Of a stretch of 64,000 bases of DNA, positions 5,392-40,061 are shown one piece after another; positions within the stretch are counted from its first letter, which is position 1, and every line of letters starts with the position of its first letter. The stretch comes from a virus: IMG/VR virus record IMGVR_UViG_3300013767_000188, positions 7,673-71,672 of that record; one strand, 5' to 3'. The notes under the pieces are model-generated. The model saw only the letters and a list, made by a program, of their open reading frames with translations. It did not search any database and had not been told where the DNA came from. A program made the position numbers and the translations under genes.

Positions 5392-5394
5392 TCG

Positions 5395-6022: not shown

Positions 6023-6028
6023 GACTGT

Positions 6029-6454
6029 TTATGTCGCCGATGGCGACATACTCTCCCATTCGATGGTGAAACGGACCGGCTGCAGGATTTTCTTGGCGTC
6101 CGGAATCGGCTGGAAGCCGGTCAGGAAGCCCTTCGTCATGGTCCACTTCTTGCCCCGGCTCGGCAGGGTGATGACGGCGTTCGCGGTATAGGTCACGCGG
6201 TTCGCCTGCGAGGTCTCATGCCAGGTGGAGAAGAACTCGATCGAGTCGGAATCGCCTATCAGCGCATAGTTCTGACGGATGTCGCTGTAGACGAACCCGC
6301 CCGACAATTTGCCGTCGACACCGCGCTGCACCTCGGCCGACTTCAACGGGTCGGTGGAGAACACGTCGTCAGTGGCAAACTGCTGGATCTGTTGCGGGGT
6401 CGGAAACAAGAGCGGGATGGTGAAGTAGATAATCGCATCGGCTGCGGTAAGCAT
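6029..6454 (-). CDS. Tail tube protein
   Basis: 141 aa after sheath; QQFATDD, GVDGKLSGGFV. Confidence 0.8.
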   Translation of the reverse strand: MLTAADAIIYFTIPLLFPTPQQIQQFATDDVFSTDPLKSAEVQRGVDGKLSGGFVYSDIRQNYALIGDSDSIEFFSTWHETSQANRVTYTANAVITLPSRGKKWTMTKGFLTGFQPIPDAKKILQPVRFTIEWESMSPSAT

Positions 6455-8232: not shown

Positions 8233-8245
8233 GCGGTTGTTCCTC

Positions 8246-8977
8246 TTAGGAAGCGGGGTAGGTGGCTTCGACGCTGACGATGGTCAGGTCGACCACGTCG
8301 GCAGCCTGTTGCGGCACGCTGACCGTTTGATTGGCCTGTAAATGAGCGTCGACGACCCAGCGGTCTTCGTACTGCTGCTCGCCGTTGACGAACGGCAGCC
8401 GCCTTGGGTCTTCCGCGTAAAGCGGCGATACGTGCGGGTTAAGGGCGGCGAACGCTGCGACGGCGTATGCGTCGCGCATCATCGTTGCAATGATCTGCGC
8501 GTTGTCTGTCGCTCCGGGCCCGTGGATATCGATCTGCTGCGTCACCCGCGTTGGCTGCGTGACTCTCGTGGAGCCGGCCGCCATCACTTCGCTTGAGACG
8601 TTCTGCGACGGCTCGACGCGATATGTGCCAAGACCGCCCGTCGCGCCCGTCATCTGGGACACGATCCGCGTCTGCGCCGCGACGTCCTCTCCGAAGACGG
8701 TTGCGCCGCTCAGGATCACTCCGAAGGAGAGTTCGGTGACGGTCAGCACATCGAAGGCGATCGCGCCGACGAACCTGACGTCAACGAAGTCATCCAGGTT
8801 GGTCGAGAGGCGGCCGCGAAGTGTCGGGGTCATCACGACATAGGATGCTGCTTTCGGCTCAGCCACGCGGTTGGGCTGGCCGACCATGATCTCGACGTCA
8901 TCCGGCAGGATGGCCTGCATGAATTTTCCAAGCGCCTTCTGGATGTCGGACTGGTTCGGTGACACCGTCAGACCCAC
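8246..8977 (-). CDS. Tail terminator / neck protein with inserted beta domain
   Basis: GQPNRVAEP, QIDIHGP, PLYAEDP..PFVNGEQQYEDRW; upstream of sheath. Confidence 0.75.
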   Translation of the reverse strand: MGLTVSPNQSDIQKALGKFMQAILPDDVEIMVGQPNRVAEPKAASYVVMTPTLRGRLSTNLDDFVDVRFVGAIAFDVLTVTELSFGVILSGATVFGEDVAAQTRIVSQMTGATGGLGTYRVEPSQNVSSEVMAAGSTRVTQPTRVTQQIDIHGPGATDNAQIIATMMRDAYAVAAFAALNPHVSPLYAEDPRRLPFVNGEQQYEDRWVVDAHLQANQTVSVPQQAADVVDLTIVSVEATYPAS

Positions 8978-8986
8978 GTGCGCGAC

Positions 8987-9259
8987 CTATCGATAGTAGG
9001 AGACGTTGAGGACGGCGCTTGCGCTCTGCTCGATGAACTTGATCTTCGACAGTGTGCCCGAGTACTGAAAAATCGCGCCCTTCACCAGCGGCATGCCGAT
9101 CGAAGCCGTCGGCGCGGCGCCGTCGTCGCGGTATCGAACATCCTGCGTGTCGGCGGTGATAATGGCGAATGTCGCGCCCGCTGGGACAGTCAATCCCTTC
9201 GCGGCCGACAGGCCTGTGATCTGCTCATACCCAAGCGGAACGGATGGTTGTGCGAACAT
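8987..9259 (-). CDS. Hypothetical small beta-rich virion protein
   Basis: 90 aa in neck operon (VRYRDDGAAPTASIGMPL). Confidence 0.6.
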   Translation of the reverse strand: MFAQPSVPLGYEQITGLSAAKGLTVPAGATFAIITADTQDVRYRDDGAAPTASIGMPLVKGAIFQYSGTLSKIKFIEQSASAVLNVSYYR

Positions 9260-17297: not shown

Positions 17298-19130
17298 TTA
17301 GGCGCTGACGCGGATCTTGGACGCGTGCGGGAAGCGTTCCGCGAAGCTCTTGGTCTGAGCCGCGTCCATGGCGAGGGTCGTTTTCTTCTGCTGACCGACG
17401 CCCGGCACCGGGATGGCTTCGAGGATGATCGGCAGCGCGGCATCGTCCTTGACCGCGGTGACGTCCTTGCCCATCGCAGTGAGGACGTGACGGTAGACCG
17501 CGCCGGCGCTGTCAAACGCCATCACGAGGCTGCCGACATACGGGCGCACCTTCTCGCGCGCCTCGGTGATGGCCTGCTGGTTCTTGCGTTCGCCCGCGAT
17601 CGCCTGATCGGTTGCGAGTTTGATGCGCTCGTCCATCGCCTTCTTTTCGTCCTCGTCCTTCTTGGCGGCTTCGTCAGCGGCCTTCTTGTCGGCCGCCTTC
17701 TTGTCCTTGGCTTCCTTTTTCAGCCGCGCCGCCTTTTCCTCTTCGGTTTCGGTCTCTTCGTCCTCGGCGGTCTCGTCGTCATCCATGTCGCCGTCTTCCG
17801 CCTTTGCGTCCTTCTTGTCGTCCTTGTCCGGGAATTCGTCGGCGCCGGCGACCTCGGTCTTTTCGATCATGTCGATGACCTTCTCCAGGCCGTCGAGCGA
17901 TGCGTCCTGCGCGAGCTTGCCTTCGACAGACTTCGTGACAAAGGCGGTGAGGGTGCCCTTCTTCTTCGCGAAGTTCTTGGCGTTGATGCCCTTGAGGCCT
18001 GCGCCAAGGTCAATCTTCGCGTCCATCGCGAGCAGCGGCTGGAGGTAAACCATCAAAGCGCCCTGAGCGACGGTAGCCTTGCGGGACAGGATGTTCTTAG
18101 ACATTGCAAATCTCTCCTGAATTGCTGGGTTGACTGAATCACCAACCACGACGTCCGATCCGGCGCGGCCTTCTTCGACGAGTGCAACGTGGTTGCCTTT
18201 GATGTCACGCATGACACCGTCGTATTTCTGCCCCTCAAATACTCCGGGGGTCATATCGGCGCGGTATCGGTACGCGCTCGACAGTTCCTTCTTTTTCTCT
18301 GACTGAACTGCGTCGATGCCCTTCTTCGCCCAGACAACGAGGCTGTTGCGCAGGAAGGGGTGGGCATACTCGGCATCGGTGCCCGTCGATCCGACGATAT
18401 GCTCGGGCTTGTGGCTTTCCGCACTGACCGCGACGTGCTGATCGAGCAGCGGGATGTTGTTGAAGGTGTGCGCTGCCTTGCGTAGCTCTTCCGGATCTCG
18501 CAGCAGCTGGTAGACGCGGCCAGGCTCTAGACCGAGTTCCTTGAAGTTCGGAATCTCGTGGCCGAAATACGGATTGACCGTCGCCTTGCTGATGTTGCTG
18601 ACTTCAACGTGCATGTTGCCGTTGGCGTCGATCGAGCGGACCGTCGCAGTGGCGCGGTCGAAGGCGAGGCCCTGACGCAGCTGCTGCTCTCCCGTCATGA
18701 TCGACCGGTCGAACGCCATCGCGGCGTCCATCGCATGCGGCTTCACGATGATTTCGGCGCACCGCTCGATGGTGCCTTTGACGGCTGGGTGCATCGGCTC
18801 CGGCAGCATCTCGCGCGGTGCCCACGCGTAGCCCGAATGCTCGTCGTTGAGCACCGGAACGAACTTGGCGTCGACGCGATGCGCAAAGGTGTAAAAGGTC
18901 CACCCGTTCGGCGTCTCACATTCGTCGATCTGGACACGCGAACCGGGAGGCGTGAGGCCGATTTCCTCGAGACATTCGCGGACGGCGCACTGGTCCGGCG
19001 TCTCGCCGTCCTCGGCACCGCCACCGGGCAGAGCCCAATGACCGCCGAAGTTCTTCTCAGCCGTCGACCGCCGCAGCAGCAGGATATCGCCATCTGGAGC
19101 GATATACATGACGCCGGCGGCGATCTTCAT
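17298..19130 (-). CDS. Nudix hydrolase fused to DUF2213-type prohead protease and scaffold
   Basis: Nudix box GGAEDGETPDQCAVRECLEEIG; KELSSAY and GNHVALVEEGRAG protease motifs; acidic scaffold tail. Confidence 0.85.
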   Translation of the reverse strand: MKIAAGVMYIAPDGDILLLRRSTAEKNFGGHWALPGGGAEDGETPDQCAVRECLEEIGLTPPGSRVQIDECETPNGWTFYTFAHRVDAKFVPVLNDEHSGYAWAPREMLPEPMHPAVKGTIERCAEIIVKPHAMDAAMAFDRSIMTGEQQLRQGLAFDRATATVRSIDANGNMHVEVSNISKATVNPYFGHEIPNFKELGLEPGRVYQLLRDPEELRKAAHTFNNIPLLDQHVAVSAESHKPEHIVGSTGTDAEYAHPFLRNSLVVWAKKGIDAVQSEKKKELSSAYRYRADMTPGVFEGQKYDGVMRDIKGNHVALVEEGRAGSDVVVGDSVNPAIQERFAMSKNILSRKATVAQGALMVYLQPLLAMDAKIDLGAGLKGINAKNFAKKKGTLTAFVTKSVEGKLAQDASLDGLEKVIDMIEKTEVAGADEFPDKDDKKDAKAEDGDMDDDETAEDEETETEEEKAARLKKEAKDKKAADKKAADEAAKKDEDEKKAMDERIKLATDQAIAGERKNQQAITEAREKVRPYVGSLVMAFDSAGAVYRHVLTAMGKDVTAVKDDAALPIILEAIPVPGVGQQKKTTLAMDAAQTKSFAERFPHASKIRVSA

Positions 19131-20523: not shown

Positions 20524-22212
20524 TTACGCCGCCTTGCGGGTCTCGCCGCTGTCCTCGTCGTCTTCCGATTCCTCGTCGTCACCGGCGGCGTCGATATCGC
20601 CGTCCGTATTTTCATCAGCAGGCGGCTCCGGCACGTCATCCACGTCGAGGCCGGGATATGGCGTATCAGGATCGCTGGCGATGCGCGCGCGTTCTTCTTC
20701 GGGGTGCAGCGTGCCGTCATCGATGAGGATCTGGCCGGTCTCGGCTTTGATCTTGTCGACTTCGGCTTGCCCCTTTTCGTCGAGCGACCAAAGCGGCTCG
20801 TAGATGAACGAGATATCCGGATCGACCTTGCCCCAAATGTTGATCTGGGCGAACGCGATCACGGTGCGCAGGTGGCGCGTAAAGAACTTCTCCTGAAATG
20901 CGTGGATCGAATCGTAGAAAACGCGGATCTCGGGCTCTGCGGTGCCATTCAGACCGTGCGGCGATATGCCGAGCAGCTTGACCAGCGGAATGCGGCTGAC
21001 GGCCGCCATGTGTTCCTGTGCCTGAGCCTGCAGTGCGTCCAGCGTTCCTAGCGGAGCCGCGACGTTCTGGAATTCCTCGCTTTCCTTGTCCAGCACCATC
21101 GTCCCGCGATTGTTGCGGATGTTGTTGAACAGGTCGACGCGGTCGAAAAGCTCGTTACCCTGCGGCGACAGGTCGGCGCCCATGTTGGTGCTGAGCACGA
21201 AGACTGAGAATGCCTGGACGATGTCGGCAACGCTCTGGCGCACGCCGAGCCAGTTGTCGACATAGGGCTTGGCCATCTGGGACATGGCGAGACCGCCGAA
21301 CGCGTATGCCGGCTTGAGCATGTCCGGCACTTCGCGGCCGACAAAGCGCAGCAGCCGAGAGACGTGGACTTCCTTGCCCTGAACGAACCAGCCCTGCGGA
21401 TTGTACCAATCTTCCTTGAGCGGGTCGTTCGAGTTGTACGATGCCGGATAACACCAGATCGGCTCGACGACCGCGAGGCGCTTGAAGTCGCCTTTGGCGA
21501 ATTTGCCTTCCGACATCTTGTCGAAGCCGTCGCCGATCGGCGTCTTGAGCTCCGCCGGGTCGTCCGTCTTGCCGGTGTCGATGTACAGATGCGCGCGGCC
21601 GAACAGACCGTCGACCTCGCAGAGTTTGCAGAACATGTCCCGCACGCGGAGGCGGTCCAGTTCCTCATTCAGTTCCTCAATCTGCCTGGTCTTGTCGGTG
21701 TCGCCCTTGACCTGCAGCTTGATCCACTTGCGGGTCATTTCCGTCGCGATGGTCTCGCTGATGACGCGGTATTCCGGACGCTGAGCCAGTTCGGCCAGGT
21801 ACGTGTATCCGAGGAACGTGACACCTTCGACGAACGCCGAATTCGCGATGTTGCCCCATGCCGAGTTTGCAAAGGCGTTGACGTTCGTAATGTTCTCGTC
21901 CTTCGCCATCCCGTCATTGTCGGGGATCGCCGACTTCGGGAAGTCGGGCAGGCGAAACGGAGTGGTTGTAGGCGCTGTCGCAGGCCTGCGCGTGTTCTGC
22001 TTTGACCTCTGCAGGATGTCAGGCGTGATCCTGATCGGCCTGCGAGACAGGACTGCAGGAGCGGGCGCAGCCGTGGCAACCGGCTTTGCCTTCGCAGCAG
22101 CGCGCGGCTTCTTCGCCGGCGCGCGCCGAGGACGTGCAACGGCTTGCTCCATGAATGTCATCGCGATCTGAGTGGCGATTTGCTTCACGAGCTTTTTCCG
22201 GCTTTTCTTCAC
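20524..22212 (-). CDS. Portal protein (DUF1073-like)
   Basis: LAELAQRPEY..MTRKW, VHVSRLL, IPLVKLLGISPHGLN; follows terminase. Confidence 0.9.
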   Translation of the reverse strand: MKKSRKKLVKQIATQIAMTFMEQAVARPRRAPAKKPRAAAKAKPVATAAPAPAVLSRRPIRITPDILQRSKQNTRRPATAPTTTPFRLPDFPKSAIPDNDGMAKDENITNVNAFANSAWGNIANSAFVEGVTFLGYTYLAELAQRPEYRVISETIATEMTRKWIKLQVKGDTDKTRQIEELNEELDRLRVRDMFCKLCEVDGLFGRAHLYIDTGKTDDPAELKTPIGDGFDKMSEGKFAKGDFKRLAVVEPIWCYPASYNSNDPLKEDWYNPQGWFVQGKEVHVSRLLRFVGREVPDMLKPAYAFGGLAMSQMAKPYVDNWLGVRQSVADIVQAFSVFVLSTNMGADLSPQGNELFDRVDLFNNIRNNRGTMVLDKESEEFQNVAAPLGTLDALQAQAQEHMAAVSRIPLVKLLGISPHGLNGTAEPEIRVFYDSIHAFQEKFFTRHLRTVIAFAQINIWGKVDPDISFIYEPLWSLDEKGQAEVDKIKAETGQILIDDGTLHPEEERARIASDPDTPYPGLDVDDVPEPPADENTDGDIDAAGDDEESEDDEDSGETRKAA

Positions 22213-23933
22213 CGACGCCTCATCATCGGCTGTCGCGAGCGCGCCAGCATTTCCGGAGAAATCACCATCGGCCGCTTAACTGGTATCGGCCAGAACGCCA
22301 TGATGATCGCATCCGCAAGGTTGGGGGACTTCGTGCCTTCCGGCGTCTTGTCGATGAGCATTTTCATGCTGCTACTGAGTCCAGCGGTCGGCTGGCTTAG
22401 CTCTTTTTCGATCTTGCGCAGGTTCGGCAGATCGCGCGGCAGACTGATGAGTTCGTCCGGCTGGTATGTGAAGTTCGCGTGTTCAGCATCGCCTTTGCGC
22501 TTTTGAACGGCGCGCCACGTCCTTTCGAATCGGCGGCGCACTTCCCACCACGCCTGAGCCTTCAGGTTCTGGTAAAAATCTTTGTTGATCGGCGACTGCT
22601 TGTCGCCATCGATGAGGTGCCTATCGGGGTGCAGCACCTCGTCGCCGGCGTTCCAAGGCACAAGGAAGATGTCCCTCGGCATCAGCTTTTCGTCGATCAG
22701 GCGGTTTGTTTCCCCCTTGATGCCGGCGCCTATGCCGATGCAATCGTACTGCAGATCGATCTTTCCGAGGTTTCGGCAACCATCAACGGCGCGGCGCGCG
22801 GTGATCGCGGTATCGCGCTCGCCCCATTCTTCGACGCTCTTGAGGATGACGCCCTTGCGCTTTGCCAGCGCGTTCGTGTCGCCACCACCGTCGGCAACGT
22901 CCAGCGCGGCAACCCAGCCGCCGCTGTCATCGAAGCCCAGGGCCTCGTGCGCGCCGATCGCGGCCTTGACCCACTCGGCAGGAATGACCACGCCTTCAAT
23001 TGCGGCGAAGTAGTTTCGATCGACTTCCTGTGCAAAGACATGCAGCAGGCCGTCGTCGACCGCCTTCTTGCGGCGCATGTCGTACCATTCCTGAGATTTG
23101 GCCGGATGGTCGCGCCAGTCCATCACAAGGACTTGCGTCCGGCCCTTCTCAATCGGGACGCCACGTTGCCAGTCGAACCCGGCCTCACGGCGCCGGTGAA
23201 AGACGTTTCCCGGGCCATTGACGGAACTGATATCGATTTGGACGCGGGTGTTGTCGGCGAGCGCCGCTTCGATCTTCTCGGGCCGCTTGTAGTGCGCCGA
23301 CTCGTCCTTGAAGAAAATCCGCTTTCGACCACCGCGACCGATGTTGTCGCCAGTGTCGCCGGTGATGGTCGCATCCGTTTCCGGATTGACCACCTTCATG
23401 AACGACATGTGGACGTTGGGGTTGAACCCAACGGGCAGGAACTCGGACGGCAGGCCGCGGATCAGCATTCGAATCTTTTCGAAGATGCTGTCGGTGTCGC
23501 CTAGCTTGTCGACGAGGTCTTGTTCGCGGCTGCCCCAGCCGATCGACGTTCCGGGCGAGAACCGCCAGAGCCAGACTGTGAAGGCAACGCAAACCCACGT
23601 CGCGCCCATGTCGCGGCATTTCTCGACGAGGCCGCTTTCCTCTCCGTTGAGGCAATCGAGCAGGAACGTGACGAGGTCTTCTTGCCGCTCGAACAGAATG
23701 AACGGCATGCGAGCCGGTGTATCTGTGCCGGCGTTACGAGGATCGTAGGTATCGCACCAATGGTTGATGAACTCGATCGGGTGCGTGCGATAGAATTCCA
23801 GCGCGCCGACAAGCATGTCGGGCGAGGATCTGATCTTGAGCAGCTGCGCCTGGCGCCAAGCCCAAACCGAAACGTAATCCGGTGGCCAGCTCTCGCGTTT
23901 AACCGTTGCTGGAACCTGAAAGGGTACTGGCAT
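22209..23933 (-). CDS. terL: Terminase large subunit
   Basis: EKCRDMGATW ATPase motif, RGGR..FKDESAH, LDVADGGGD, SPNLADA nuclease motifs. Confidence 0.93.
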   Translation of the reverse strand: MPVPFQVPATVKRESWPPDYVSVWAWRQAQLLKIRSSPDMLVGALEFYRTHPIEFINHWCDTYDPRNAGTDTPARMPFILFERQEDLVTFLLDCLNGEESGLVEKCRDMGATWVCVAFTVWLWRFSPGTSIGWGSREQDLVDKLGDTDSIFEKIRMLIRGLPSEFLPVGFNPNVHMSFMKVVNPETDATITGDTGDNIGRGGRKRIFFKDESAHYKRPEKIEAALADNTRVQIDISSVNGPGNVFHRRREAGFDWQRGVPIEKGRTQVLVMDWRDHPAKSQEWYDMRRKKAVDDGLLHVFAQEVDRNYFAAIEGVVIPAEWVKAAIGAHEALGFDDSGGWVAALDVADGGGDTNALAKRKGVILKSVEEWGERDTAITARRAVDGCRNLGKIDLQYDCIGIGAGIKGETNRLIDEKLMPRDIFLVPWNAGDEVLHPDRHLIDGDKQSPINKDFYQNLKAQAWWEVRRRFERTWRAVQKRKGDAEHANFTYQPDELISLPRDLPNLRKIEKELSQPTAGLSSSMKMLIDKTPEGTKSPNLADAIIMAFWPIPVKRPMVISPEMLARSRQPMMRRR

Positions 23934-24345
23934 AAGCAGCGGCAGCCTGTTGCGGCGTCATCTTGCCGGTGACGGTCTCGATGGGCCCGCCGCCCTTGCC
24001 GGTGAGCTCGAGCAGCGCCTTGTCGGTTTCACCGAGGTGGACCTTCCTCAGGTGAATGGTCATTTGCACACCGGCGCTGTTCGCCATCTGCATATGCTTG
24101 AACGACTGGCGTTTGATGCTGAGCTTGCCGAGGTTCTGCGCGCGGTTGAACAGATCGCGATACTTCGGTTCGGCAAGGCGACGCTTCATGGTCCGAAGCG
24201 ACACGTCGAAGAACGCAGCAAGTTCTTCGACAGTACATTGAAGCTTTGCGGCCTGCGCAAAGCTTACTTCATCGATTCGCACGCGCTTTCGGCCGCCCGT
24301 ATCTTCGTCTTCCAAGTCGACCGGAGGAGACTTCCTTTTCGGCAC
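23899..24345 (-). CDS. terS: Terminase small subunit (putative)
   Basis: HTH CTVEELAAFFDVSLRT; C-terminal ELTGKGGGPIE; overlaps terL; GAGG 6 nt before GTG 24345. Confidence 0.75.
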   Translation of the reverse strand: MPKRKSPPVDLEDEDTGGRKRVRIDEVSFAQAAKLQCTVEELAAFFDVSLRTMKRRLAEPKYRDLFNRAQNLGKLSIKRQSFKHMQMANSAGVQMTIHLRKVHLGETDKALLELTGKGGGPIETVTGKMTPQQAAAAYASTLSGSSNG

Positions 24346-24455
24346 AGCAGACCTCAAGCAGAACTGACAGTAGAGTGAAGGTTACAAAAAGAGTAGAAAA
24401 GACAGAGACATGAGAGCACAATCTGAGACTTAACACGAACTCAGAGGAGGCGGCA

Positions 24456-25265
24456 TTGTCGGCACCGGCGCTGAACGACGACGGCATTTCAATCAAGGGC
24501 TGCAGCTTCATCTATCCGCCGCGCGGACAGGCGGGCGAATACTCGGCACTCGCGGCGAACCCCTATCGAGGCTGCGGCCATAAGTGCGCGTACTGCTATG
24601 TGCCGCGCGTCACGAAACAGGATCGCGGCGAATTCAACGCCGGCGCTGTTGATCGCGCCAACTATCTCACGCATCTGCGCAAGGATGCGGTGAAGTACAA
24701 AGCGGCCGGCATCACCGAACAGGTGATGATCTCGTTCACGTCAGACCCATACCATCCCGGCGATAGCACGCTGACGCGGCAGTCGTTCGAACTCATGATC
24801 GAACACGGCCTCGGCATCTGCGCGCTGACCAAGGGCGGCACGCGCGCGCTGCGCGATATCGACTTGTTCAGACCGGACCGGGACGCCTTCGCGTCGACAC
24901 TCACGAGCCTGGATGACAGGTTTTCGCAGAAGTGGGAGAGTGGCGCTGCGATGCCGGGGGACCGGATGAACGCGCTCAAGGCCTTCCACGAAAAGGGCAT
25001 CTACACGTGGGTCAGTCTCGAGCCCACAATCGACGTTGAAGCCAGCCTCTCAATCGTCGAGGCGACGCATTCGTTCGTCGATCTCTACAAAGTCGGCAGG
25101 GTCAACTATCTGCCGATCACGAAGACCACTGATTGGGAAGGCTACACCCACCGGATGATCGACCGGCTGCACCAGCTGGGCAAAGCCCACTACATAAAAC
25201 GCGATCTCCAAAAATTCTTACCAGCCAACTACCACAACCCGTTGCGCGTGCCGCAGCATCACTGA
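24456..25265 (+). CDS. Radical SAM protein (spore photoproduct lyase-like family)
   Basis: NPYRGCGHKCAYCY (CxxxCxxC), SDPY, LTKG, SLEP; GGAGG before TTG. Confidence 0.85.
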   Translation: MSAPALNDDGISIKGCSFIYPPRGQAGEYSALAANPYRGCGHKCAYCYVPRVTKQDRGEFNAGAVDRANYLTHLRKDAVKYKAAGITEQVMISFTSDPYHPGDSTLTRQSFELMIEHGLGICALTKGGTRALRDIDLFRPDRDAFASTLTSLDDRFSQKWESGAAMPGDRMNALKAFHEKGIYTWVSLEPTIDVEASLSIVEATHSFVDLYKVGRVNYLPITKTTDWEGYTHRMIDRLHQLGKAHYIKRDLQKFLPANYHNPLRVPQHH

Positions 25266-25691
25266 GGGCAGGGCGATGAAACAGAAAATCTCTGCTATCC
25301 TCGCGCGGCTTCAATGGCTGGTCCGCAGAACACAGCCAGACCCGTCGGCTCCCTCGATCAACCCGATTGACCACGAGCAGACCAAATGACGCCCGCCGAA
25401 CTCCTGCTTTACGTGGCGCTGGTCGGCATTGTTGCGCTGACGATGGCCATCGTGGGAGCGTGGTGGTTTCTCAGCTGGGTCTGGTCGTGGACGCCAGACC
25501 CGTACAACGATTGAGGCCAATATGATCGATAAGACAACCTTCGAGCGACTGAGGGCGCTCGCACGCAGCCACTACGAGAGAGCCATCAAAGAACACGAGG
25601 ACAGCGCAGCGAAAGTGGCGGACTTGACGTTGGAGTGGGTGAAGATCGATGAAGACATCGATGGCCTTGAAGCAATCTACGAATTGGAGCT

Positions 25692-26300
25692 CTAACCCTT
25701 TCCCTTGAGCACCAGCCCGATGTACCGCATGGCGGCCCCGGTCTTGCCTTCGGCCTGCCACTGCTTTTCGATGGTGCAGTTCATCCGGCGCGCGAGGCCT
25801 GCGATGGCCTTCGCGATCACCGCGTCCTGTTTCTTGCTCAGTCCTACGATGCCGGTTTTCAACCCTGTCAGCAGGCCAATGGCTTCTGGGATGATGTTCG
25901 ACTTGTAAGCGAACCCGCCGCCCTCGGTCAGGACCAACCCGAAAAGCTCCCCCGGCGCGACGCGCCGCCGATCGGCAATGATGATGGCCTGATGCCACGG
26001 CGAGCCGTAGGCATCGAGGTCGAAGAGGCTAAACTCGGCCAGGTTAGCGACGCGCAACACGCGGCGATTGTCGGCCGCGAACATGAGGCGGCCGTCGCGC
26101 TGCGGCTTGAGATCGCAGCCGGTATAGCCCTTCGCGTCTTTCCAGACCGCGGAATACATTTCGCCGGAGCCAGCGAAGGCATCGAAGACTACGACATCAC
26201 GCCCGACAACTTCCAGGACGCGACGTCGAATCTCAACCTTCGCACGGAATGCCTGCCGATTATTGTCTGTCTTCCCCGGCCCCTTCTTGTCGAGGGACAT
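25692..26300 (-). CDS. Class I SAM-dependent methyltransferase-like protein
   Basis: Motif I VFDAFAGSG; motif IV-like FDLDAYGSP. Confidence 0.75.
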   Translation of the reverse strand: MSLDKKGPGKTDNNRQAFRAKVEIRRRVLEVVGRDVVVFDAFAGSGEMYSAVWKDAKGYTGCDLKPQRDGRLMFAADNRRVLRVANLAEFSLFDLDAYGSPWHQAIIIADRRRVAPGELFGLVLTEGGGFAYKSNIIPEAIGLLTGLKTGIVGLSKKQDAVIAKAIAGLARRMNCTIEKQWQAEGKTGAAMRYIGLVLKGKG

Positions 26301-26518
26301 CAGACCACCGTGACGTTGATCGCCTTGCGCCCATCGCCCTTGTTCGACGAACCGAGCTCGTAGGTCACGCGCTGGTCGACGAGCAGCATTTCGTTGCCGA
26401 CCAGGTCGGTGCGATGCACGAACACATCCATCGACTTGTCGTCGGGGATGATGAACCCGAACCCCTTTTGCTCCGAGAAGAACTTGACCTTACCTGACTG
26501 CTTGACGTGGACGCTCAT
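26300..26518 (-). CDS. Cold-shock domain protein
   Basis: GKVKFFSEQKGFGFI (RNP1), DVFVH (RNP2). Confidence 0.92.
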   Translation of the reverse strand: MSVHVKQSGKVKFFSEQKGFGFIIPDDKSMDVFVHRTDLVGNEMLLVDQRVTYELGSSNKGDGRKAINVTVV

Positions 26519-26547
26519 TGACGCAACCTTGGTGCTGGTGGTGTGGC

Positions 26548-26718
26548 TCAGGCAGCTTTCAGTGTGGCGGCGAGGAATGGGCCACGCCGGACCGTGTCGC
26601 CCTCGAACCATACGCATTCGACGCGCAGGCCTGTATCCGACACCGCCTCGACGGTCATCTTCGGCGTGGAACCGGACTTCAAGCGCACGACATCGCCTGG
26701 ACTGAACTGTGCGGACAT
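26548..26718 (-). CDS. YodC/DUF2158-like small protein (absent from ORF track)
   Basis: Hand translation MSAQFSPGDVVRLKSGSTPKMTVEAV...VECVWFEG...F...LKAA. Confidence 0.8.
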   Translation of the reverse strand: MSAQFSPGDVVRLKSGSTPKMTVEAVSDTGLRVECVWFEGDTVRRGPFLAATLKAA

Positions 26719-26722
26719 ACTG

Positions 26723-27328
26723 TTACCCGAGGTTGATGGTGCCCTGTTCGACGGTGACGCCGGCGAACGGCTTCATCGCATCCTGTAAAATTCTAAGCAC
26801 TTTTGCCTGATGGGCGAGGGGACCGCGAAGGCTGATCCAGAACTCATCGTCGACCGGGCCGGTCTCGATTTCGCGGACTTCCAGATCGGCTGGTTCGTCG
26901 AGCAGGCCCTTGAGCTCGCCGGGCGAAAAACCGAGGACGAGGGCATCTTCTCCTTCGTCCTGCAGTTCGAGCAGCACACCGCGCAGGATTTCATCATCCC
27001 ACCGGCTGTTCTCGCCGATTTTGTTTAGAGCTAGCCCTAACGCTTTGTAACCGGCTTCGGATAAACCATCGATCACCCGGCACTCTACCTCGGTGCGCTC
27101 CATCCGCTTGAGGGCTTCGAGACGCGCGTGACCGCCGATGATTTGGCCGTCTGGTCGCACCACCAGCATCTCGACATAGCCGAAACGCTCGATTGCGCCG
27201 ACGATCTGCGAGATTTGCGCTTCGCTGTGGCGGCGCGCGTTGCGTGGATCGGCAGTCAGGGACGCAATCTGTCGCACCTCGACAGTTGCGGCAGGTACAC
27301 CAGCCGCCGCGGCTTTCGCTTTAGACAC
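26723..27328 (-). CDS. ParB/Srx N-terminal domain protein
   Basis: PRNARRHSEAQI, IIGGHARLEA, ALNKIGENSRWD. Confidence 0.88.
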   Translation of the reverse strand: MSKAKAAAAGVPAATVEVRQIASLTADPRNARRHSEAQISQIVGAIERFGYVEMLVVRPDGQIIGGHARLEALKRMERTEVECRVIDGLSEAGYKALGLALNKIGENSRWDDEILRGVLLELQDEGEDALVLGFSPGELKGLLDEPADLEVREIETGPVDDEFWISLRGPLAHQAKVLRILQDAMKPFAGVTVEQGTINLG

Positions 27329-27786
27329 TGAAACGCACTCCTGAACGGCCAGTTAAAAATTCTGTCGCATGGCGAACACAAAGCTGACAGACTGGACACT
27401 CGACCAGAAAACCCTATCGGGGACGGCCTATGCACTCGGGTGACGACGGGGCAACCCGGCAACTGACCGAACGCTACATCGCGTTCTTGCGGAGCGAGCT
27501 GACTGCCTCAATGCTGGAATTGTACGGGGCCGCGGATCTCCGCTACTTCGTCTTGCCCGATCCCTTGTTGCAGTCAGCCCTCGATCGACAGCCACCGTCA
27601 AGACGTGCGGCCGTCGTACTCGAGGCGATCGGCGCCGCTGAGGTCAGTTACCCAGCAGGTGATCAAGTCGCCGATAAGCGCGAGCCAGCTCATCAGCATT
27701 GACCTTGAACGCATCCATTTCAGCCTGACGTTCCACTTCGCCGGCGCGCTTGCCGTTGCGGCGATCACGCTTGGCTGCGGCGAGAG

Positions 27787-28110
27787 CTAGGCGTTCGTCA
27801 GCGCGTTGCCGCTTTGCGAGAGCGCGAAGGTTCTCGCGATGGTGGCGCTGCCCGCTTGCGTGGATGTTGCGGAACACTGTGCTGCTCGCTTCTTGTCGAG
27901 GGCTGACTGACCTGGTGCTGGGTCGCCGCAGATTTCGGCGGTGAGAGACTTCACGGCGAGAACGCGGCGCGCGCGATCTTCGAGAACATGGGCCGGTGCC
28001 GCTGGGCCCGGTGTGACGAGGTGCGGCCCGTGCGGGTTGCGGTACATCTCGCGCTCCGCTTCTCGGTCGCGCTCTGATTTCTGACGAACGTACTTCCGGT
28101 TCGACGTCAT
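27787..28110 (-). CDS. Hypothetical protein
   Basis: MTSNRKY...GDPAPGQSALD; part of coupled small-ORF run. Confidence 0.5.
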   Translation of the reverse strand: MTSNRKYVRQKSERDREAEREMYRNPHGPHLVTPGPAAPAHVLEDRARRVLAVKSLTAEICGDPAPGQSALDKKRAAQCSATSTQAGSATIARTFALSQSGNALTNA

Positions 28111-28509
28111 GGAATCTGTGTGAGGATGGCGATGCAGCCGGAGACGATTGCTGCGGCAATCGCCCAAAGCGACCATGTGTCGCGGATAGTCGGAAAGCCG
28201 TTGTACGTCCGAACGGCCTTCCGTCGCTGCACTCCGAAATGTCGGCTCATGTCGTCTCGCGGTTCGTACCCGAAGAAGTTGCGGCTCATTTCGGACCAAC
28301 GATGTACAGGGTGATTGCCGCCCCAATGCATGCGAGCGGAAACGCGCTGACGATTCCTGCCAGTGCTATAGTTTCGAGATCGGATGTTCTTAGCCAGCTT
28401 TCAACCACGTCGCGCCAATCGCGCTTCGGATACAGCGGCTTTAGCTCTCGTTGGCGTGCAGCGATCAGGTCCGCCAAATCCGGCTTGGGCGGCTTGACGT
28501 TCGGAACAC

Positions 28510-29001
28510 TCACGGTGTCAGCTTCCCGTCGCGGATGAACCCGTGCCAGCAGTTGCGCGGGCCCATGAAGAACGAACCAGCCCCAGCACCACAGGTCGGA
28601 CCGTTCTTGTCGACGGTGATGCGCTCGCCAATCGTGCCTTGTCGTACCCAGCAACGATGCGTCGGCTCATCAGGCAACGTGCAGTTGCTGGCGCGGCCTT
28701 CGATGTTCCAGGCTGTGTTGCCGGCGTACCCCTCATCCCCTGCGACGACGCAGAAGATCGAATGACCATCCTTGCCAGCGCGCGGATAATCGTCGGCATG
28801 AGAGCCTTTGCGACGTGGCGACGCGTACAGCGCGCCGATCGGTAACTCGCGGGATGAGCATTCCTCGCCTGTGGCCATGTTGCGCATGATTGGCGATGAT
28901 ATCGCACCTTCGAAGGGACCGCGGCGAAGCTCGCCGCTTTCGTCGAACGTGTATTCCCACCACGAGGTCTCGAAGACTTCGCCGCCGTTGATGGTCATCA
29001 C
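28510..29001 (-). CDS. Hypothetical Cys/His protein with DUF6527-like C-terminus
   Basis: RASNC..HRCWVR..TCGAGAGS..WHGFIRDG. Confidence 0.6.
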   Translation of the reverse strand: MMTINGGEVFETSWWEYTFDESGELRRGPFEGAISSPIMRNMATGEECSSRELPIGALYASPRRKGSHADDYPRAGKDGHSIFCVVAGDEGYAGNTAWNIEGRASNCTLPDEPTHRCWVRQGTIGERITVDKNGPTCGAGAGSFFMGPRNCWHGFIRDGKLTP

Positions 29002-29334
29002 TCAGTCCTGCGTCTCGATGAGGAAGCTGTCGACGCCGGCCGGAATCGGCGGCATCGCGACGAAGTCCGAACGCTTGTGCCAGCTGTCAGAACAGAACTG
29101 GATCACGCCGCCCGTGATGATGTAGTGGCAGACCCGTTCCTCGCCGTTCGGTCGCTCCGACTGATCGCCGATCTCTTGGTAGAACGTCTGCTTGAAGCTT
29201 GGCGAGAACGTCGGCGTTTCGAGATTGCCGTCGAACTTCCAGCTATCCGGCAGCGGGTGCATTTGCTCGCACGCCGGACACCAATGGAAGAACTGCGTCG
29301 GCCCCCGACGCATCACGCTGCTGACCTGGCTCAT
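29002..29334 (-). CDS. DUF6527-like metal-binding protein
   Basis: HWCPACEQMH, WKFDGN..PTFSPS, CHYIITGG..FCSDSWH. Confidence 0.7.
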   Translation of the reverse strand: MSQVSSVMRRGPTQFFHWCPACEQMHPLPDSWKFDGNLETPTFSPSFKQTFYQEIGDQSERPNGEERVCHYIITGGVIQFCSDSWHKRSDFVAMPPIPAGVDSFLIETQD

Positions 29335-29546
29335 GCCGGCTTTCCCAAGAAAACTGCGAAGGTGCTTTCGCCGATACGATCAACGCGGCAGGCGCCAAGG
29401 GCCGCTAACTTCTCAATCTGCTTCCGGTCGATCGCTGCGCGTGCGCTGACGCTGCCGAAGTATTGACCGGCTTCGTCGAGCATGAGCTCGCGGTACTTTT
29501 CGAGGAAGTGAAGCGCGTGCACGTCCTTCGTGGACAGCTTCGCCAT
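29331..29546 (-). CDS. Hypothetical protein
   Basis: 71 aa, translationally coupled. Confidence 0.5.
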   Translation of the reverse strand: MAKLSTKDVHALHFLEKYRELMLDEAGQYFGSVSARAAIDRKQIEKLAALGACRVDRIGESTFAVFLGKPA

Positions 29547-29550
29547 CAGG

Positions 29551-29880
29551 TCAGGTGCCTACCTTCACTTCGGTGCCGTCCCACACGAACTCGCCGTCTG
29601 CACCAACCGGGAAGTGTGATCGGCAACCGGCGCAGAACGTGCCGCTGTAGAAATACGGATCACGCGCATACGTCTCGGCAAGCGCGTTGCTCATCTTGGT
29701 CAAGGTGCCACAGGTCTGATGCACGTAGCTGTCGCGCACCGGACGCACGAAACCCTTCGCGCGCTCTGCTTCGGACAGAACGACATAGCCCTTCTGCTGG
29801 CCGGTCGCTGGATTGATCTCGCGGTGATCGGCTGGCACCGGGCTGCCATCGGTCAGCGTGGTCTCAGGACGTTCGGTCAT
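29551..29880 (-). CDS. Hypothetical Zn-ribbon phage protein
   Basis: GQQKGYVVLS..FVRPVRDSYVH..CG..FYSGTFCAGC..FVW. Confidence 0.7.
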   Translation of the reverse strand: MTERPETTLTDGSPVPADHREINPATGQQKGYVVLSEAERAKGFVRPVRDSYVHQTCGTLTKMSNALAETYARDPYFYSGTFCAGCRSHFPVGADGEFVWDGTEVKVGT

Positions 29881-33000: not shown

Positions 33001-33504
33001 ATGATGCCAGCGCCACTTTCGATCATCGGCCATCGGTTTGCCAAGGTCACGGTCCTCCGCGAGGTTGATCAATACGTCTCGCCCGGTGGCCGCCCGATGC
33101 GAAAATATCTCGTTCGCTGCGACTGCGGCATCGATAAGGAAATCCTCGGGAGCCATCTTCCCAAGATCGTCAGTTGCGGATGTCACAAGAACGGACTGCT
33201 CGGTGGGCTGAACCGGACCCACGGCGAGGCCAATAAGACGGCCGAATACGTCGTGTGGCGCGGCATGGTTCAGCGTTGCACCTATGAGAAGCACCGCTAT
33301 TTCAAAAACTACGGTGGTCGCGGCATCAAGGTCTGCGATCAATGGTTGCGCAGCTTTCCGACGTTCCTGAAAGACATGGGGCGACGGCCATCACCGAAGC
33401 ACAGCATCGACCGCTATCCCGATAACGACGGGAACTATGAGCCGTCGAATTGTCGCTGGGCAACGAGGAAACAGCAGCAGGCAAACCGGGCGAGGGCGAA
33501 ATGA
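33001..33504 (+). CDS. HNH-type homing endonuclease-like protein
   Basis: CDCG..SCGC, YGGRGIKVC, SIDR..DNDGNYEPSNCRWAT. Confidence 0.85.
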   Translation: MMPAPLSIIGHRFAKVTVLREVDQYVSPGGRPMRKYLVRCDCGIDKEILGSHLPKIVSCGCHKNGLLGGLNRTHGEANKTAEYVVWRGMVQRCTYEKHRYFKNYGGRGIKVCDQWLRSFPTFLKDMGRRPSPKHSIDRYPDNDGNYEPSNCRWATRKQQQANRARAK

Positions 33505-34382
33505 AAATCGCCATCGACCGCATCCAGCCCGACCCCGGTCAGCCTCGCAAAATCTTCAACCTGGAACAACTCCAAGAGCTTGCGAACTCTATCGCGTCGA
33601 GCGGCCTTCTGCAGCCGATCCTCGTTAAAAAATCCGGCGTTAGATACCAGATCGTTGCCGGTGAGCGACGCTGGCGCGCCCATGCGCTTCTGGCGAAGCG
33701 CGGCATGAAGAAGTTCGCGACTATCGAATGCAATCTCGCCAAGCAGAAGGCTGGCGCCGATACTCGTGTTGCTCAGATTGTGGAAAATATGCTGCGCGCG
33801 GACATGACCCCGATGGAGGAAGCCGAGGCGTTCGTCGAACTGCGCGACACCTACGGCATGGATGAAGCGGCGATCGCCGGCAAGCTAGGGCTTGCTGCCT
33901 TTCGAGTGAAGTGGCGACTATCGCTTATGAACCTTTCGCCGGCGTCGCGGAGGCTATTCGAGGCCGGTGCGATCGAGCAGCAGGCCGCGAACGAGGTCGC
34001 GCGTCTTGATCGCGACGCGGATCAGGCCCGCATCATCAGGATGTTAAACCGGGGCGACCTGATCGGCTGGAAGTCCGTCAGAAACGCGGTCGACGCCATC
34101 CTCCAGGGCACGACCCACGAGGATCTGTTCGGCGCGGCCGCCCCATTGCCCAAGGCGAAGGAGTTGGCAGTCGTGAAGTCGATGGAAAAGAAGGTTGACG
34201 ATATCGCCGCGGTGGTTTCAATCGGCTGGCAGAACGGCGAGTGTATCGTTGCGAGCAAGATCGCGCCCGACCGTGCCGGCGTCATGGCTGACAAACTGGC
34301 GGGTATCAAGGCCGCTATCTCGCACATGGAACGCGAACTGAGGAACGTCAACGCGCAAGCGCGCATAGTGATGACAGGATAG
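33501..34382 (+). CDS. ParB/RepB/Spo0J family protein
   Basis: PGQPRKIF, GLLQPI, IVAGERRWRA, ENMLRADMTPMEEA, HTH. Confidence 0.92.
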   Translation: MKIAIDRIQPDPGQPRKIFNLEQLQELANSIASSGLLQPILVKKSGVRYQIVAGERRWRAHALLAKRGMKKFATIECNLAKQKAGADTRVAQIVENMLRADMTPMEEAEAFVELRDTYGMDEAAIAGKLGLAAFRVKWRLSLMNLSPASRRLFEAGAIEQQAANEVARLDRDADQARIIRMLNRGDLIGWKSVRNAVDAILQGTTHEDLFGAAAPLPKAKELAVVKSMEKKVDDIAAVVSIGWQNGECIVASKIAPDRAGVMADKLAGIKAAISHMERELRNVNAQARIVMTG

Positions 34383-38925: not shown

Positions 38926-39774
38926 TTAGGCCGCGAATGCTTTCTCAAGGTGGTTGCTGATGAGCTCGATGAGCGCGGCTGACGTGCCGACACCGTCTTT
39001 CAGGGCCGCGTGTCGCGCGGCCGTCCAGTTGCTGACGAGGTCGAAGGTCTGCATCGCTTCGACCAGAGCGGCACGGTCAGCGTGCCAGGATGGCTCTGCG
39101 TCCAGTGTCGCGCACAGGGCCTCGACAAGAGGCGCGCGGACCCAGCCCGCGTTGCCATCGCCGGTCTTCGTGATGCATGACAGCGCGGAGACCAGCGTCT
39201 CGCGGCCATAGCGCGCAAGCTGACGAGCCAGCTTCACAGCTGCGAGGGTATCGCCAACCTGCATCAGATTAGATGCAACGGGGTAACGGCAGATCGTTAC
39301 GCCAGCTTCTCCGCATGCGTCGTGCAACGCGACAGCTTCCGGCTCGCCGGCAGCCACGCGTGCGGCGTGCAGTTGCATGGTTGAGATCGCGGTGACCTTG
39401 CCGTTGATCGCGGCGAACGCGCTTGCTTGTGCGGCGACGTCTGCGTCGGTGATGAGGCAGGGGACGTCGCGGATACCGCGCAGCGCGGCCGCGGTGGTCC
39501 GGTGCTGGCCGTCGATGATGGAATAGATGCCGTCCTCAATCTCCGCCACGACGACCGGGGCGAACTTCGACCAGTCGAATTCTGCCGCGATATCGATCAC
39601 GTTCTTTTCGCTGGCCTTGCCGACGATCTTCCGCTGATAGCGGTGGTCGATGCGCAGGCTGGCGATCGCGATCCAGTGCAGCCGGGGCTTTTTGCTGGCA
39701 TCGATGTCCGACAGGACGCGGCCATCAAGACGAGGCCGCAGCGCCGCGCCGCTGATGCGGAATAATTCGCTCAT
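38926..39774 (-). CDS. ParB-like (DUF6551/DGQHR-type) protein
   Basis: LRIDHRYQR, IIDGQHRTTAA, AFAAING. Confidence 0.8.
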   Translation of the reverse strand: MSELFRISGAALRPRLDGRVLSDIDASKKPRLHWIAIASLRIDHRYQRKIVGKASEKNVIDIAAEFDWSKFAPVVVAEIEDGIYSIIDGQHRTTAAALRGIRDVPCLITDADVAAQASAFAAINGKVTAISTMQLHAARVAAGEPEAVALHDACGEAGVTICRYPVASNLMQVGDTLAAVKLARQLARYGRETLVSALSCITKTGDGNAGWVRAPLVEALCATLDAEPSWHADRAALVEAMQTFDLVSNWTAARHAALKDGVGTSAALIELISNHLEKAFAA

Positions 39775-40061
39775 CCTGCTGCCCTCGCTGGTGCAGGCAC
39801 GGAAGGCGATTTCGCGGACCACGTCTCAAGCAGCGCGCGCATTTCCGGCTCGAACTCGCTGAGCATCTTGAAAATGGCATGCGCTTCGCCGACGCGCGCA
39901 GCGCGCTCGCGAAGTATACGGATGCTGTCGTTGATGCCGGGGCTCGGCGGGAGCCGCGCGGCCAGTTCTTCGGCGGCGTTGACATTTTCGCAGAGAAGGT
40001 TCGCGGCTTCGCGCAGCCCGACCGCAATCTCTGCGAAACTGGACTGCTGGGCATTACGCAT
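39771..40061 (-). CDS. Hypothetical protein
   Basis: MRNAQQSSF..., coupled. Confidence 0.5.
   Translation of the reverse strand: MRNAQQSSFAEIAVGLREAANLLCENVNAAEELAARLPPSPGINDSIRILRERAARVGEAHAIFKMLSEFEPEMRALLETWSAKSPSVPAPARAAG

Follow-up and report, generated by a model that had tools for sequence, protein, structure and literature searches.

Genes for fusions of a ParB-type domain with a DNA methylase (ParB-methylases) are known to lie beside terminase genes; two reports place them next to the genes for the small terminase subunit (terS) and an HNH endonuclease, give the order HNH, terS, ParB-methylase in Bacillus cereus, and describe nicking of DNA by the fused protein of that species (PMC3592412, PMC5512222). 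Also already known, from annotation resources, is the pairing of TcmP, a methyltransferase-like protein, with the radical S-adenosylmethionine (SAM)-type protein DUF5131. We know of no function for DUF5131 (Gp37/Gp68) or for the TcmP pair. The current work concerns a 64,000-nucleotide stretch of viral DNA (positions 7,673 to 71,672 of IMG/VR record IMGVR_UViG_3300013767_000188; referred to here as the window), which is part of a 71.7-kb provirus record and whose closest named protein homologues come from Bradyrhizobium. Within it, the interval 24456-27328 encodes a ParB N-domain (ParB-N) protein, a small methyltransferase and a radical SAM enzyme resembling spore photoproduct lyase (SPL), and it is the repeated association of these three gene types across viral and bacterial genomes, together with the exchange of individual members between related cassettes, that is reported below.

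The three genes are the following:

26723..27328, minus strand: ParB/Srx N-domain protein, 201 amino acids (aa), based on PHROG matches and gene linkage
25692..26300, minus strand: small class I SAM-dependent methyltransferase of an unnamed family, 202 aa, based on the fold of an AlphaFold2 model and on motifs
24456..25265, plus strand: SPL-like radical SAM enzyme, 269 aa, based on PF04055 and an AlphaFold2 model

A ParB/Srx protein, a methyltransferase with the motif FDLDAYGSP and an SPL-like radical SAM enzyme had been proposed for this interval from the nucleotide sequence (hereafter the original prediction), and all three genes are present where they had been placed.

Co-occurrence of the cassette genes

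Searching with the methyltransferase retrieved 81 loci, 66 of them viral and 15 located in bacterial genomes (Alpha- and Betaproteobacteria, Acidobacteriota, Chloroflexota, Actinomycetota, Desulfuromonadales and Riflebacteria), 76 of the total being distinct by methyltransferase sequence. A first tblastn pass over the 66 viral loci detected ParB in 62, the radical SAM enzyme in 30, a cold-shock gene in 12 and terS in 11, and clustering of the neighbouring open reading frames (ORFs) uncovered a second frequent neighbour, DUF5131 (Gp37/Gp68; Pfam E-value 6.9e-69). With hidden Markov models (HMMs), ParB is found upstream and on the same strand in 78 of the 81 loci, at a distance of at most 100 bp in 56. 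Three loci depart from this pattern: L011, where the upstream flank measures just 270 bp; L021; and L029, for which tblastn places a ParB 1.5 kb upstream. The SPL-like enzyme is encoded in 33 loci (within 1 kb in 30; convergent in 25 and co-directional in eight) and DUF5131 in 34 (within 1 kb in 24), the two never being found together (0/81), while 14 loci have neither in the flank.

For ten of these 14 loci the whole record was searched, L017 could be followed through a shared contig, and the other three have a downstream flank of 1-261 bp. Three of the ten whole records encode a PF04055 enzyme and no DUF5131, and four encode DUF5131 and no PF04055 enzyme; two of the three PF04055 enzymes belong to the SPL-like family of the window (73-74% identity), and the third record carries a methyltransferase identical in sequence to that of L017. 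All seven records that are at least 84% complete and lack a nearby enzyme hold exactly one of the two types, 6.5 to ~10 kb away, whereas a 39%-complete record encodes a different, 173-aa radical SAM protein, and fragments that are 50% and 8% complete encode none. The L017 contig also yields the radical SAM locus L135, the methyltransferase being 6.7 kb apart. Overall, a radical SAM partner is present in 75 of the 81 loci, the other six being truncated loci, record fragments or L065. The latter is a low-GC viral fragment where the gene that comes after the methyltransferase-ParB pair (7225-7746, minus strand) encodes a 173-aa radical SAM protein of another kind, with the motif CNLSCEYC, which may be a third interchangeable partner.

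The grouping of the cassette genes is far beyond chance. When the 76 methyltransferase sequences are placed in a quick maximum-likelihood tree, the SPL-like label requires 12 changes by parsimony, of which well-supported branches force at least five, and the DUF5131 label requires 18, with at least six forced, as compared to a mean of ~24 for shuffled labels. Since the tree forces at least five to six partner changes, the SPL-like enzyme and DUF5131 have replaced each other repeatedly inside the same cassette.

The association was also analysed starting from the radical SAM enzyme, using the best 80 of 509 IMG/VR viral stretches encoding a relative, all of them at least 65% identical. A match to the methyltransferase HMM is present in 56 of the 80 (34 at E<1e-30 and 22 weaker, some of these being cut by contig ends). 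In six others, an ORF of 395-433 aa that starts with ParB adjoins the radical SAM gene, directly convergent in the five that were mapped; five of these six long ORFs contain a PF01555 N6_N4 DNA methylase, and the sixth gives a weak D12 methylase signal. ParB by itself accounts for two further stretches, and 16 have no partner, eight of which possess less than 2 kb of downstream flank. When these eight are set aside, 72 informative loci are left, 64 of which have the methyltransferase, a ParB-methylase ORF or (in two cases) ParB alone, and 62 of which include one or the other methylase; pairing of the radical SAM enzyme with ParB is thus seen in 64 of the 72. Co-occurrence across phages, which the original prediction had proposed as its own check, is thus borne out from both directions. 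Near one SPL-like gene (L136), a solo ParB is directly followed by a gene for a 376-aa protein with ABC-ATPase and GNAT signals (4951-6081, minus strand), which may be another kind of ParB-linked modifying enzyme.

As a background, 11 of 50,697 GenBank phage records encode the SPL-like enzyme and 175 encode DUF5131. No tblastn match to the methyltransferase was obtained in these records at 1e-3; an HMM later caught a divergent methyltransferase in Dulem virus 36, so that the tblastn blank understates its range. In this metagenome-derived virus, one of the 11, three co-directional genes encode ParB, a 190-aa 'hypothetical protein' that contains VIDLDAFGSP and matches the methyltransferase HMM at 1.3e-24, and a 'PA0069 family radical SAM protein'. 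Where isolated phages carry a solitary DUF5131 or SPL-like gene, its neighbours are SSB, ERF, exonuclease, NinB, RusA or integrase genes, and no ParB, methyltransferase or TcmP gene was found within 3.5-4 kb of those in Parabacteroides phage PDS1, Erythrobacter phage R6L, Xanthomonas phage CP2 and Burkholderia phage phiE125. Two unrelated phages, both without ParB and methylase, encode an ASCH-domain protein after the SPL-like gene (L149, 10813-11280, plus strand; PDS1 gp34/gp35, L172). ASCH domains have a PUA-like fold and are readers of modified nucleic acid bases.

Properties of the three encoded proteins

The ParB-N protein matches phrog_620 at 4.3e-38 and 16 further ParB PHROGs, and also the N-terminal part of phrog_498 'DNA methyltransferase' (5.7e-35) and positions 9-146 of the 436 positions of the PADLOC model MTase_II (6.2e-29), while the Pfam model ParB_N stays below its cut-off (E 0.059; 13.9 versus 26.3 bits). 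An alignment of 33 ParB partners shows N29, G49 and G65 to be invariant and W163 and G168 to be conserved in at least 90%, G65 being located in a G-G-H-x-R motif (GGHAR in the window), and the partners have in common a family-specific C-terminal block of ~50 aa (EFWISLRGPL...) around W163/G168. Judged by these profile matches and conserved positions, the protein can be assigned to the ParB/Srx superfamily as an N-terminal-type domain. A function as a partition ParB was ruled out: beside the weak ParB_N match, neither HTH_ParB nor any further Pfam domain was detected at E ≤ 10. The prophage encodes four ParB-like proteins in total (26723-27328, minus; 33450-34382, plus; 38926-39822, minus; 57102-58763, plus), of which one is 553 aa long and matches phrog_7783 at 1.4e-63, and the gene at 33450-34382 directly follows an HNH endonuclease gene (33001-33504; phrog_374, 2.9e-52). 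In locus L031, a second, 500-aa ParB-family ORF (7759-9258, plus strand) is located just downstream of a methyltransferase-DUF5131 cassette and before a GpA-type terminase.

The methyltransferase carries VFDAFAGSGEM as motif I and FDLDAYGSP (residues 93-101) as motif IV, and has no Pfam match at E ≤ 0.01 and no NCBIfam family. When 92 diverse relatives were scanned, TRM1 (TIGR00308) was matched weakly by two (best E 5.1e-4), and CpaM, Methyltransf_23, N6_N4_Mtase (PF01555, E 0.0019), Methyltransf_25 and Cons_hypoth95 by single relatives. The family comprises 435 proteins at E ≤ 1e-3 in a word-indexed search, for which the source name is never other than 'hypothetical protein', and 934 representatives at 50% identity in an exhaustive search at the same threshold (396 at E ≤ 1e-10). 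Among 92 aligned members D94 is invariant, and D96, G99, P101 and W102, as well as the motif I positions D40, G44 and G46, are at least 90% conserved. A D-x-(Y/F)-type motif IV is a hallmark of methylases of exocyclic amino groups, and the Trm1 consensus for this motif is D-(L/I)-D-P-(F/Y)-G-(S/T), where the window protein, with D-L-D-A-Y-G-S-P, has alanine in place of the proline.

The AlphaFold2 model of this protein (predicted local distance difference test, pLDDT, 87.7) adopts a class I Rossmann methyltransferase fold, and 870 of 1000 methyltransferase chains aligned to it with VIA-align reach Z ≥ 8, with a top Z of 13.2. The best Foldseek match is Aquifex Trm1 (3axs, 8.9e-8), and the highest Foldseek TM scores (0.59-0.61) belong to Pyrococcus Trm1 entries. 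In VIA-align, TYW2, COMT, RlmI-type, Trm5, Trm1 and RsmD structures are tied at Z 12-13, within one unit; the top rows are TYW2 and Trm5, and the longest alignments are those to Trm1 (182-185 of 202 residues, Z 12.0-12.4). A query of the ESM Atlas with homologue P0063 returned, as its 30 nearest clusters, 24 that are unnamed and viral and six with PF02005 TRM. The Trm1 resemblance that had been noticed in the motif is therefore real for the modelled fold and probable for the motif, as Foldseek, VIA-align, the Atlas and the two TRM1 matches among 92 relatives concur. It does not extend to the family level: neither PF02005 at E ≤ 10 nor TIGR00308 at E ≤ 1 was detected in the window protein, which is a catalytic core without a further domain and whose alignment to Trm1 chains of 371-387 residues spans their residues 17-237, leaving their C-terminal tRNA-binding domain unmatched. 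Membership of the PF01555 N6_N4 methylases is not indicated either (E 0.18; 12.2 bits against a cut-off of 26.7, in the motif I region only). Of two methyltransferase profiles searched against PDB sequences, one returned nothing at E ≤ 10 and the other only motif I matches at E ≥ 0.2, and in a search for fused or longer forms of the methyltransferase no candidate out of 3464 scored, the latter being weak evidence.

The radical SAM enzyme scores 37.3 bits with PF04055 (cut-off 29.5) and contains CGHKCAYC, with the cluster motif C40-x3-C44-x2-C47, the three cysteines of which are invariant in 23 sequences. Its leading NCBIfam matches are PA0069 (2.7e-16) and Rv2578c (7.1e-13), with 'mobile pair protein B' also among them, all far under the cut-offs; the SPL-type families yield 13.4 of the 437.55 bits required for TIGR03886, 59.5 of 360 for NF033668 (PA0069) and 48.3 of 430 for NF038135 (Rv2578c). 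The protein also matches phrog_9252 'DNA repair photolyase', and an alignment of the enzyme used as a profile against the PDB found nothing at E ≤ 1. In its AlphaFold2 model (pLDDT 92.8), a radical SAM barrel fold, the first six VIA-align rows are all spore photoproduct lyase (Z 16.8-17.2, root-mean-square deviation 3.3-3.4, 221-223 residues), followed by lipoyl synthase at Z 15.9, TYW1 reaching Z 13.2; in Foldseek the E-value favours pyruvate formate-lyase-activating enzyme and the TM score is highest for SPL (0.65-0.66). The proposal that SPL is the structurally closest enzyme thus holds in VIA-align, and the label 'SPL-like' is fair for the modelled fold only, the scores not supporting membership of the SPL family itself. 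SPL catalysis employs a hydrogen-donor cysteine and tyrosine relay residues.

The window provirus has a single PF04055 gene and no match to PF07505 (DUF5131). The two enzyme types are nevertheless related radical SAM subgroups: the DUF5131 HMM built here matches SPL-like members weakly (3.5e-8 to 5e-6), and the SFLD table (Structure-Function Linkage Database) in the RadicalSAM.org paper gives MJ0683-like, DUF5131 and SPL as megaclusters 5-1, 5-2 and 5-3. Published lists of LexA/SOS genes include the cellular relatives Rv2578c and PA0069. Pathways of the 7-deazaguanine (QueE-type) and thymidine-hypermodification kind were considered for the radical SAM enzyme and dropped, its best matches being SPL-type; family scans of the 13 ORFs at 22209-29880 revealed no Que, TGT, kinase or pyridoxal phosphate (PLP)-dependent genes.

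Organization of the locus and position beside the terminase genes

The remaining features of the region are listed below:

26548..26718, minus strand: DUF2158 small protein, 56 aa (PF09926 at 3.8e-10)
26300..26617, minus strand: cold-shock-domain protein, listed ORF 105 aa (PF00313 at 5.2e-16, residues 41-104)
25386..25695, plus strand: two small ORFs (42 aa, hydrophobic; 57 aa), gene status uncertain
23899..24357, minus strand: putative small terminase subunit, 152 aa, named from position only
22209..23933, minus strand: large terminase subunit (TerL), 574 aa (phrog_2 at 2.4e-15)

The portal (20524-22212), TerL (22209-23933) and putative terS (23899-24357) genes follow one another on the minus strand. 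The radical SAM gene is convergent with the methyltransferase gene and divergent from putative terS. The three cassette genes had been described as lying all directly upstream of terS, which is accurate as to their presence, whereas the radical SAM gene is on the opposite strand; likewise, the set of three is real, and the cold-shock and DUF2158 genes also lie inside the interval. Both of these are clade-specific inserts, the DUF2158 gene, between the ParB and methyltransferase genes, being found by tblastn in one of the 66 viral loci and the cold-shock gene in 12, every one of them a closest relative; the real start of the cold-shock protein is probably the methionine at 26515, giving ~71 aa. 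The two small ORFs at 25386-25695 have no family match in Pfam or PHROG, and no relative of the 57-aa one was found by tblastn in the 66 viral loci. A scan of 23800-27800 returned no promoter-like site and one terminator-like site as against 3.9 expected.

The name terS, taken over from the original prediction, is supported by the overlap of this ORF with the start of TerL and by homologues upstream of TerL or portal genes in 11 of the 66 loci (tblastn); it is based on position, the ORF having no PHROG match and a weak Xre-like helix-turn-helix match (0.008). TerL of the window matches annotated TerL genes of Rhizobium and other phages (blastn). The proposed position beside the terminase genes does recur, given that TerL proteins of four clusters (Terminase_6N/6C, a second Terminase_6C type, lambda GpA and the type of the window) are encoded within 6 kb in at least 26 of the 66 viral loci, singleton terminases being uncounted, and in 21 of these loci TerL is co-directional and 0.5-3.5 kb downstream. 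A link with packaging is suggested by this gene position, the only evidence for it. What the original prediction missed are the SPL-like/DUF5131 interchange, the interchange between the methyltransferase and the ParB-fused N6_N4 methylase, and the TcmP-DUF5131 parallel.

Several further genes of the window were recorded. A DUF6527 protein (29002-29334, minus strand; PF20137 at 2.2e-7; phrog_3362) is encoded in a series of short genes without names that separates the cassette from the early region. Residues 3-122 of the 610-aa head maturation protease (17298-19130, minus strand; phrog_2229 at 8e-132) are MutT/NUDIX-like (phrog_1198 at 2.1e-21), an unusual fusion within a head module. In the early region, far from the true terminase, two paralogues of 640-670 aa (51605-53620 and 54004-55920, both plus strand) match phrog_7035 and the TerL-like phrog_2666, the second one also having a D5-like regulator part.

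Discussion

Considering that the linkage is tight and has been repeatedly re-assorted, ParB, a methylase and a radical SAM enzyme of the SPL/DUF5131 type constitute one functional unit. The reading that we favour for this unit, and to which we assign somewhat less than an even chance, is a two-step DNA modification in which the members act together on DNA. The ParB-N protein would probably bring its catalytic partners to DNA and, by analogy with the fused ParB-methylases, may bind or hydrolyse nucleoside triphosphates (NTPs) or nick DNA. The 202-aa enzyme would be a minimal SAM-dependent N-methyltransferase with a motif IV of the Trm1/(D/N)PP(Y/F) type, its fold and motifs predicting methylation of an exocyclic amino group or a ring nitrogen of a base. 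The radical SAM enzyme, whether SPL-like or DUF5131, would subject the same DNA substrate to a radical step. In the scheme considered most likely, N-methylation would be followed by radical chemistry on or beside the methylated base, and the product would exceed a plain methyl mark on phage DNA. A precedent is wyosine synthesis in tRNA, in which Trm5 makes 1-methylguanosine and TYW1, a radical SAM enzyme, then extends the methyl group so introduced.

Inferred here are DNA as the substrate, the sequence of the two steps, their product and any anti-restriction role. DNA is the best-supported substrate, because PF01555 DNA methylases substitute for the methyltransferase of the window, because the radical SAM enzyme has its nearest fold in SPL, which acts on DNA, and because fused ParB-methylases act on DNA. 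In its most specific form, namely that a ParB-guided Trm1-like N-methyltransferase and an SPL/DUF5131 enzyme act sequentially on the same base to produce a widespread and undescribed phage DNA hypermodification, as a counterpart on DNA of Trm5-TYW1, the proposal is tentative and rather doubtful.

A number of observations weigh against a two-step modification. Eight of the 72 informative viral loci have no partner for the radical SAM enzyme, and phiE125, vB_EliS_R6L, CP2 and PDS1 carry enzymes of this kind in the company of recombination genes (SSB, ERF, NinB) and without ParB or methyltransferase. Conversely, genomes with the methyltransferase only, which would be expected if methylation came first and were useful alone, were not found, radical SAM enzymes thus occurring alone and the methyltransferase never occurring without one in records that are at least 84% complete. 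As a consequence of this asymmetry, other orders of action or a repair role fit as well or better: it is possible that the methyl mark is an intermediate, that the radical step comes first, or that the radical enzyme repairs damage by the methylase. Since the VIA-align Z scores are tied, the fold of the methyltransferase gives no substrate class, and RNA is possible. As to sampling, the loci are mostly metagenomic viral contigs, relatives are non-independent samples, and the tree is a quick one rather than a careful one. Furthermore, adjacency may be inflated if both gene types favour the same accessory slot beside terS, an explanation that is weakened by the loci in which the partner is distant but present and by the partner switches.

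Among the rival explanations, one that we regard as unlikely holds that ParB and the methyltransferase leave an ordinary methyl mark, in the style of orphan anti-restriction methylases, and that the radical SAM enzyme is a DNA-repair companion, either a general one (for photoproduct-type or other lesions) or one specific to off-target or toxic lesions from the methylase; under the specific version, no methylase would be retained in the absence of the radical SAM enzyme. Such a role is consistent with SPL being both a repair enzyme and the best structural match, with the SOS/LexA listing of Rv2578c and PA0069, and with the SSB, ERF, exonuclease, NinB and RusA genes around the solitary DUF5131 or SPL-like genes. 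It also agrees, as does an antidote role, with the finding that the radical SAM enzyme can stand alone, whereas the methyltransferase lacks one in 0 of 7 records at least 84% complete. A general repair enzyme, however, would be unlikely to track one methylase family so tightly (75 of 81 loci) or to be swapped in place at least five times, and the SPL-like enzyme is present in just 11 of the 50,697 GenBank phage records. ParB-PF01555 methylases are common in phages, and because they are common while the SPL-like enzyme is rare, they would need no such partner in general.

A defence pair resembling a restriction-modification (R-M) system, in which self DNA would be marked by the methyltransferase and unmarked DNA damaged, or infection aborted, by the radical SAM enzyme, would parallel on the phage side the TcmP-DUF5131 pair of bacteria, and we consider it quite improbable. 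PADLOC does list candidate pairs in which TcmP corresponds to PDC-M41A/M30A (3.8e-109) and DUF5131 to PDC-M41B/M30B (2.3e-46), DUF5131 adjoins TcmP in eight of eight loci fetched, and motif I (DAFAGxG) and D-P-Y/F-G are common to TcmP and the methyltransferase of the window; these PDC entries are candidates, an experimental test being reported in no paper found. A Sinorhizobium meliloti TcmP gene and the Hna defence gene appear in one published table as up-regulated in a nolR+ strain, under close locus tags (SMa2243 and SMa2245). Convergent gene pairs and shuffling of the methylase type, both encountered here, are typical of R-M systems. By R-M logic, orphan methylases should nonetheless be common and orphan nucleases rare, and the reverse is seen, so that a classical R-M reading is unlikely because orphan effectors rather than orphan methylases occur. 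In addition, neither HMMs nor profile-profile comparison match the methyltransferase of the window to TcmP, and the cassette is located in or beside a late packaging operon together with ParB, which bacterial TcmP pairs lack (0/8). Least probable of all, and in our judgement very improbable, is an RNA target, whereby tRNA or rRNA of the host or phage would be modified by both catalytic proteins of the cassette and the ParB-N protein would serve only as an NTP-binding accessory. Trm5/TYW1 and RlmN/Cfr modify RNA, the closest folds of the methyltransferase are all RNA methyltransferases (Trm1, Trm5, TYW2, RlmI, RsmD, fibrillarin), the nearest named Atlas clusters have PF02005 TRM, and a cold-shock protein, which binds single-stranded nucleic acid, is encoded within the cassette in this clade. 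That gene is, however, present in just 12 of 66 loci, the methyltransferase has no RNA-binding extension and aligns to the catalytic N-terminal half of Trm1 only, SPL is a DNA enzyme, and ParB-fused PF01555 DNA methylases replace the methyltransferase beside the same radical SAM family.

Should a radical-SAM-dependent hypermodification be true, it would provide a first function for DUF5131 (Gp37/Gp68) and for the unnamed methyltransferase family and, by extension, for the TcmP-DUF5131 pairs listed as defence candidates in bacteria. Modification of phage DNA is a main escape route from restriction and a source of new enzymology and of DNA-marking tools, and the cassette joins three poorly understood families, the methyltransferase (934 clusters), the SPL-like enzyme (509 viral stretches) and DUF5131, in one testable unit. 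Close homologues exist in cultured Bradyrhizobium strains, so that the prediction is testable by standard methods. If the product were only a methyl base, this would still represent a new DNA methylase family and its ParB adaptor.

Comparison with known systems

In open-access full text, no paper was found that describes the triad, the unnamed methyltransferase family or the interchange of the SPL-like enzyme and DUF5131; PDC-M41/M30 received incidental mentions only, and TcmP appeared in tables only. The TcmP-DUF5131 pair (TIGR04474 'three-Cys-motif partner protein' and PF07505; PDC-M41, PDC-M30), the nearest parallel in annotation, is similar to the cassette in that a methyltransferase-like protein adjoins a radical SAM-type protein (8/8) and in that DUF5131 is the alternative partner of the methyltransferase family of the window (34/81 loci). 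It differs in that TcmP is ~260-460 aa long, as opposed to ~200 aa, and in that the window has ParB and an SPL-like enzyme and no DUF5131, while the bacterial pairs have no ParB (0/8). Homology to TcmP was examined and rejected, given no TIGR04474 match at E ≤ 1 for the window protein or in any of 92 members, no PDC-M41A match, and an hhalign E-value of 0.054 at 1% probability; moreover, a TcmP HMM built here matched none of 61 family members, and none of five genomes with a methyltransferase-DUF5131 pair has a TcmP match. Distant homology is possible, judging from the shared motifs I and IV.

With Trm1, the methyltransferase has in common the class I Rossmann fold and, probably, a D-L-D-x-Y/F-G-S motif IV; unlike Trm1, it has no match to the family HMM, is 202 rather than 371-387 aa long, and is encoded in phages with ParB and a DNA-type radical SAM enzyme. 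The radical SAM enzyme resembles SPL, PA0069 and Rv2578c (COG1533) in its radical SAM barrel and CxxxCxxC motif, SPL being the nearest structure (Z 17.2), and differs from them in scoring far under the family cut-offs and in being encoded with a methylase and ParB; it also lacks the first ~70 residues of the SPL chain. The Trm5-TYW1 pathway starts with an N-methyltransferase from the same structural surroundings, and its radical SAM enzyme then acts on the new methyl group. The analogy is one of logic only: that pathway acts on tRNA G37, its genes are not encoded with ParB, and other radical SAM folds are closer here than TYW1.

The ParB-methylase fusions (ParB_N and PF01555; B. cereus Bce_0392, phrog_498) show the same coupling of a ParB/Srx N-domain to a SAM-dependent methylase. 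In the window, unlike in these fusions, ParB and methylase are separate proteins, and the methylase does not belong to PF01555 but to an unnamed ~200-aa family whose motif IV is Trm1-like; no paper found by the full-text search describes a radical SAM partner as obligatory for ParB-methylases. These fusions are nevertheless the systems that stand in for the window-type pair beside the same radical SAM family, as seen in five to six of the best 80 loci.

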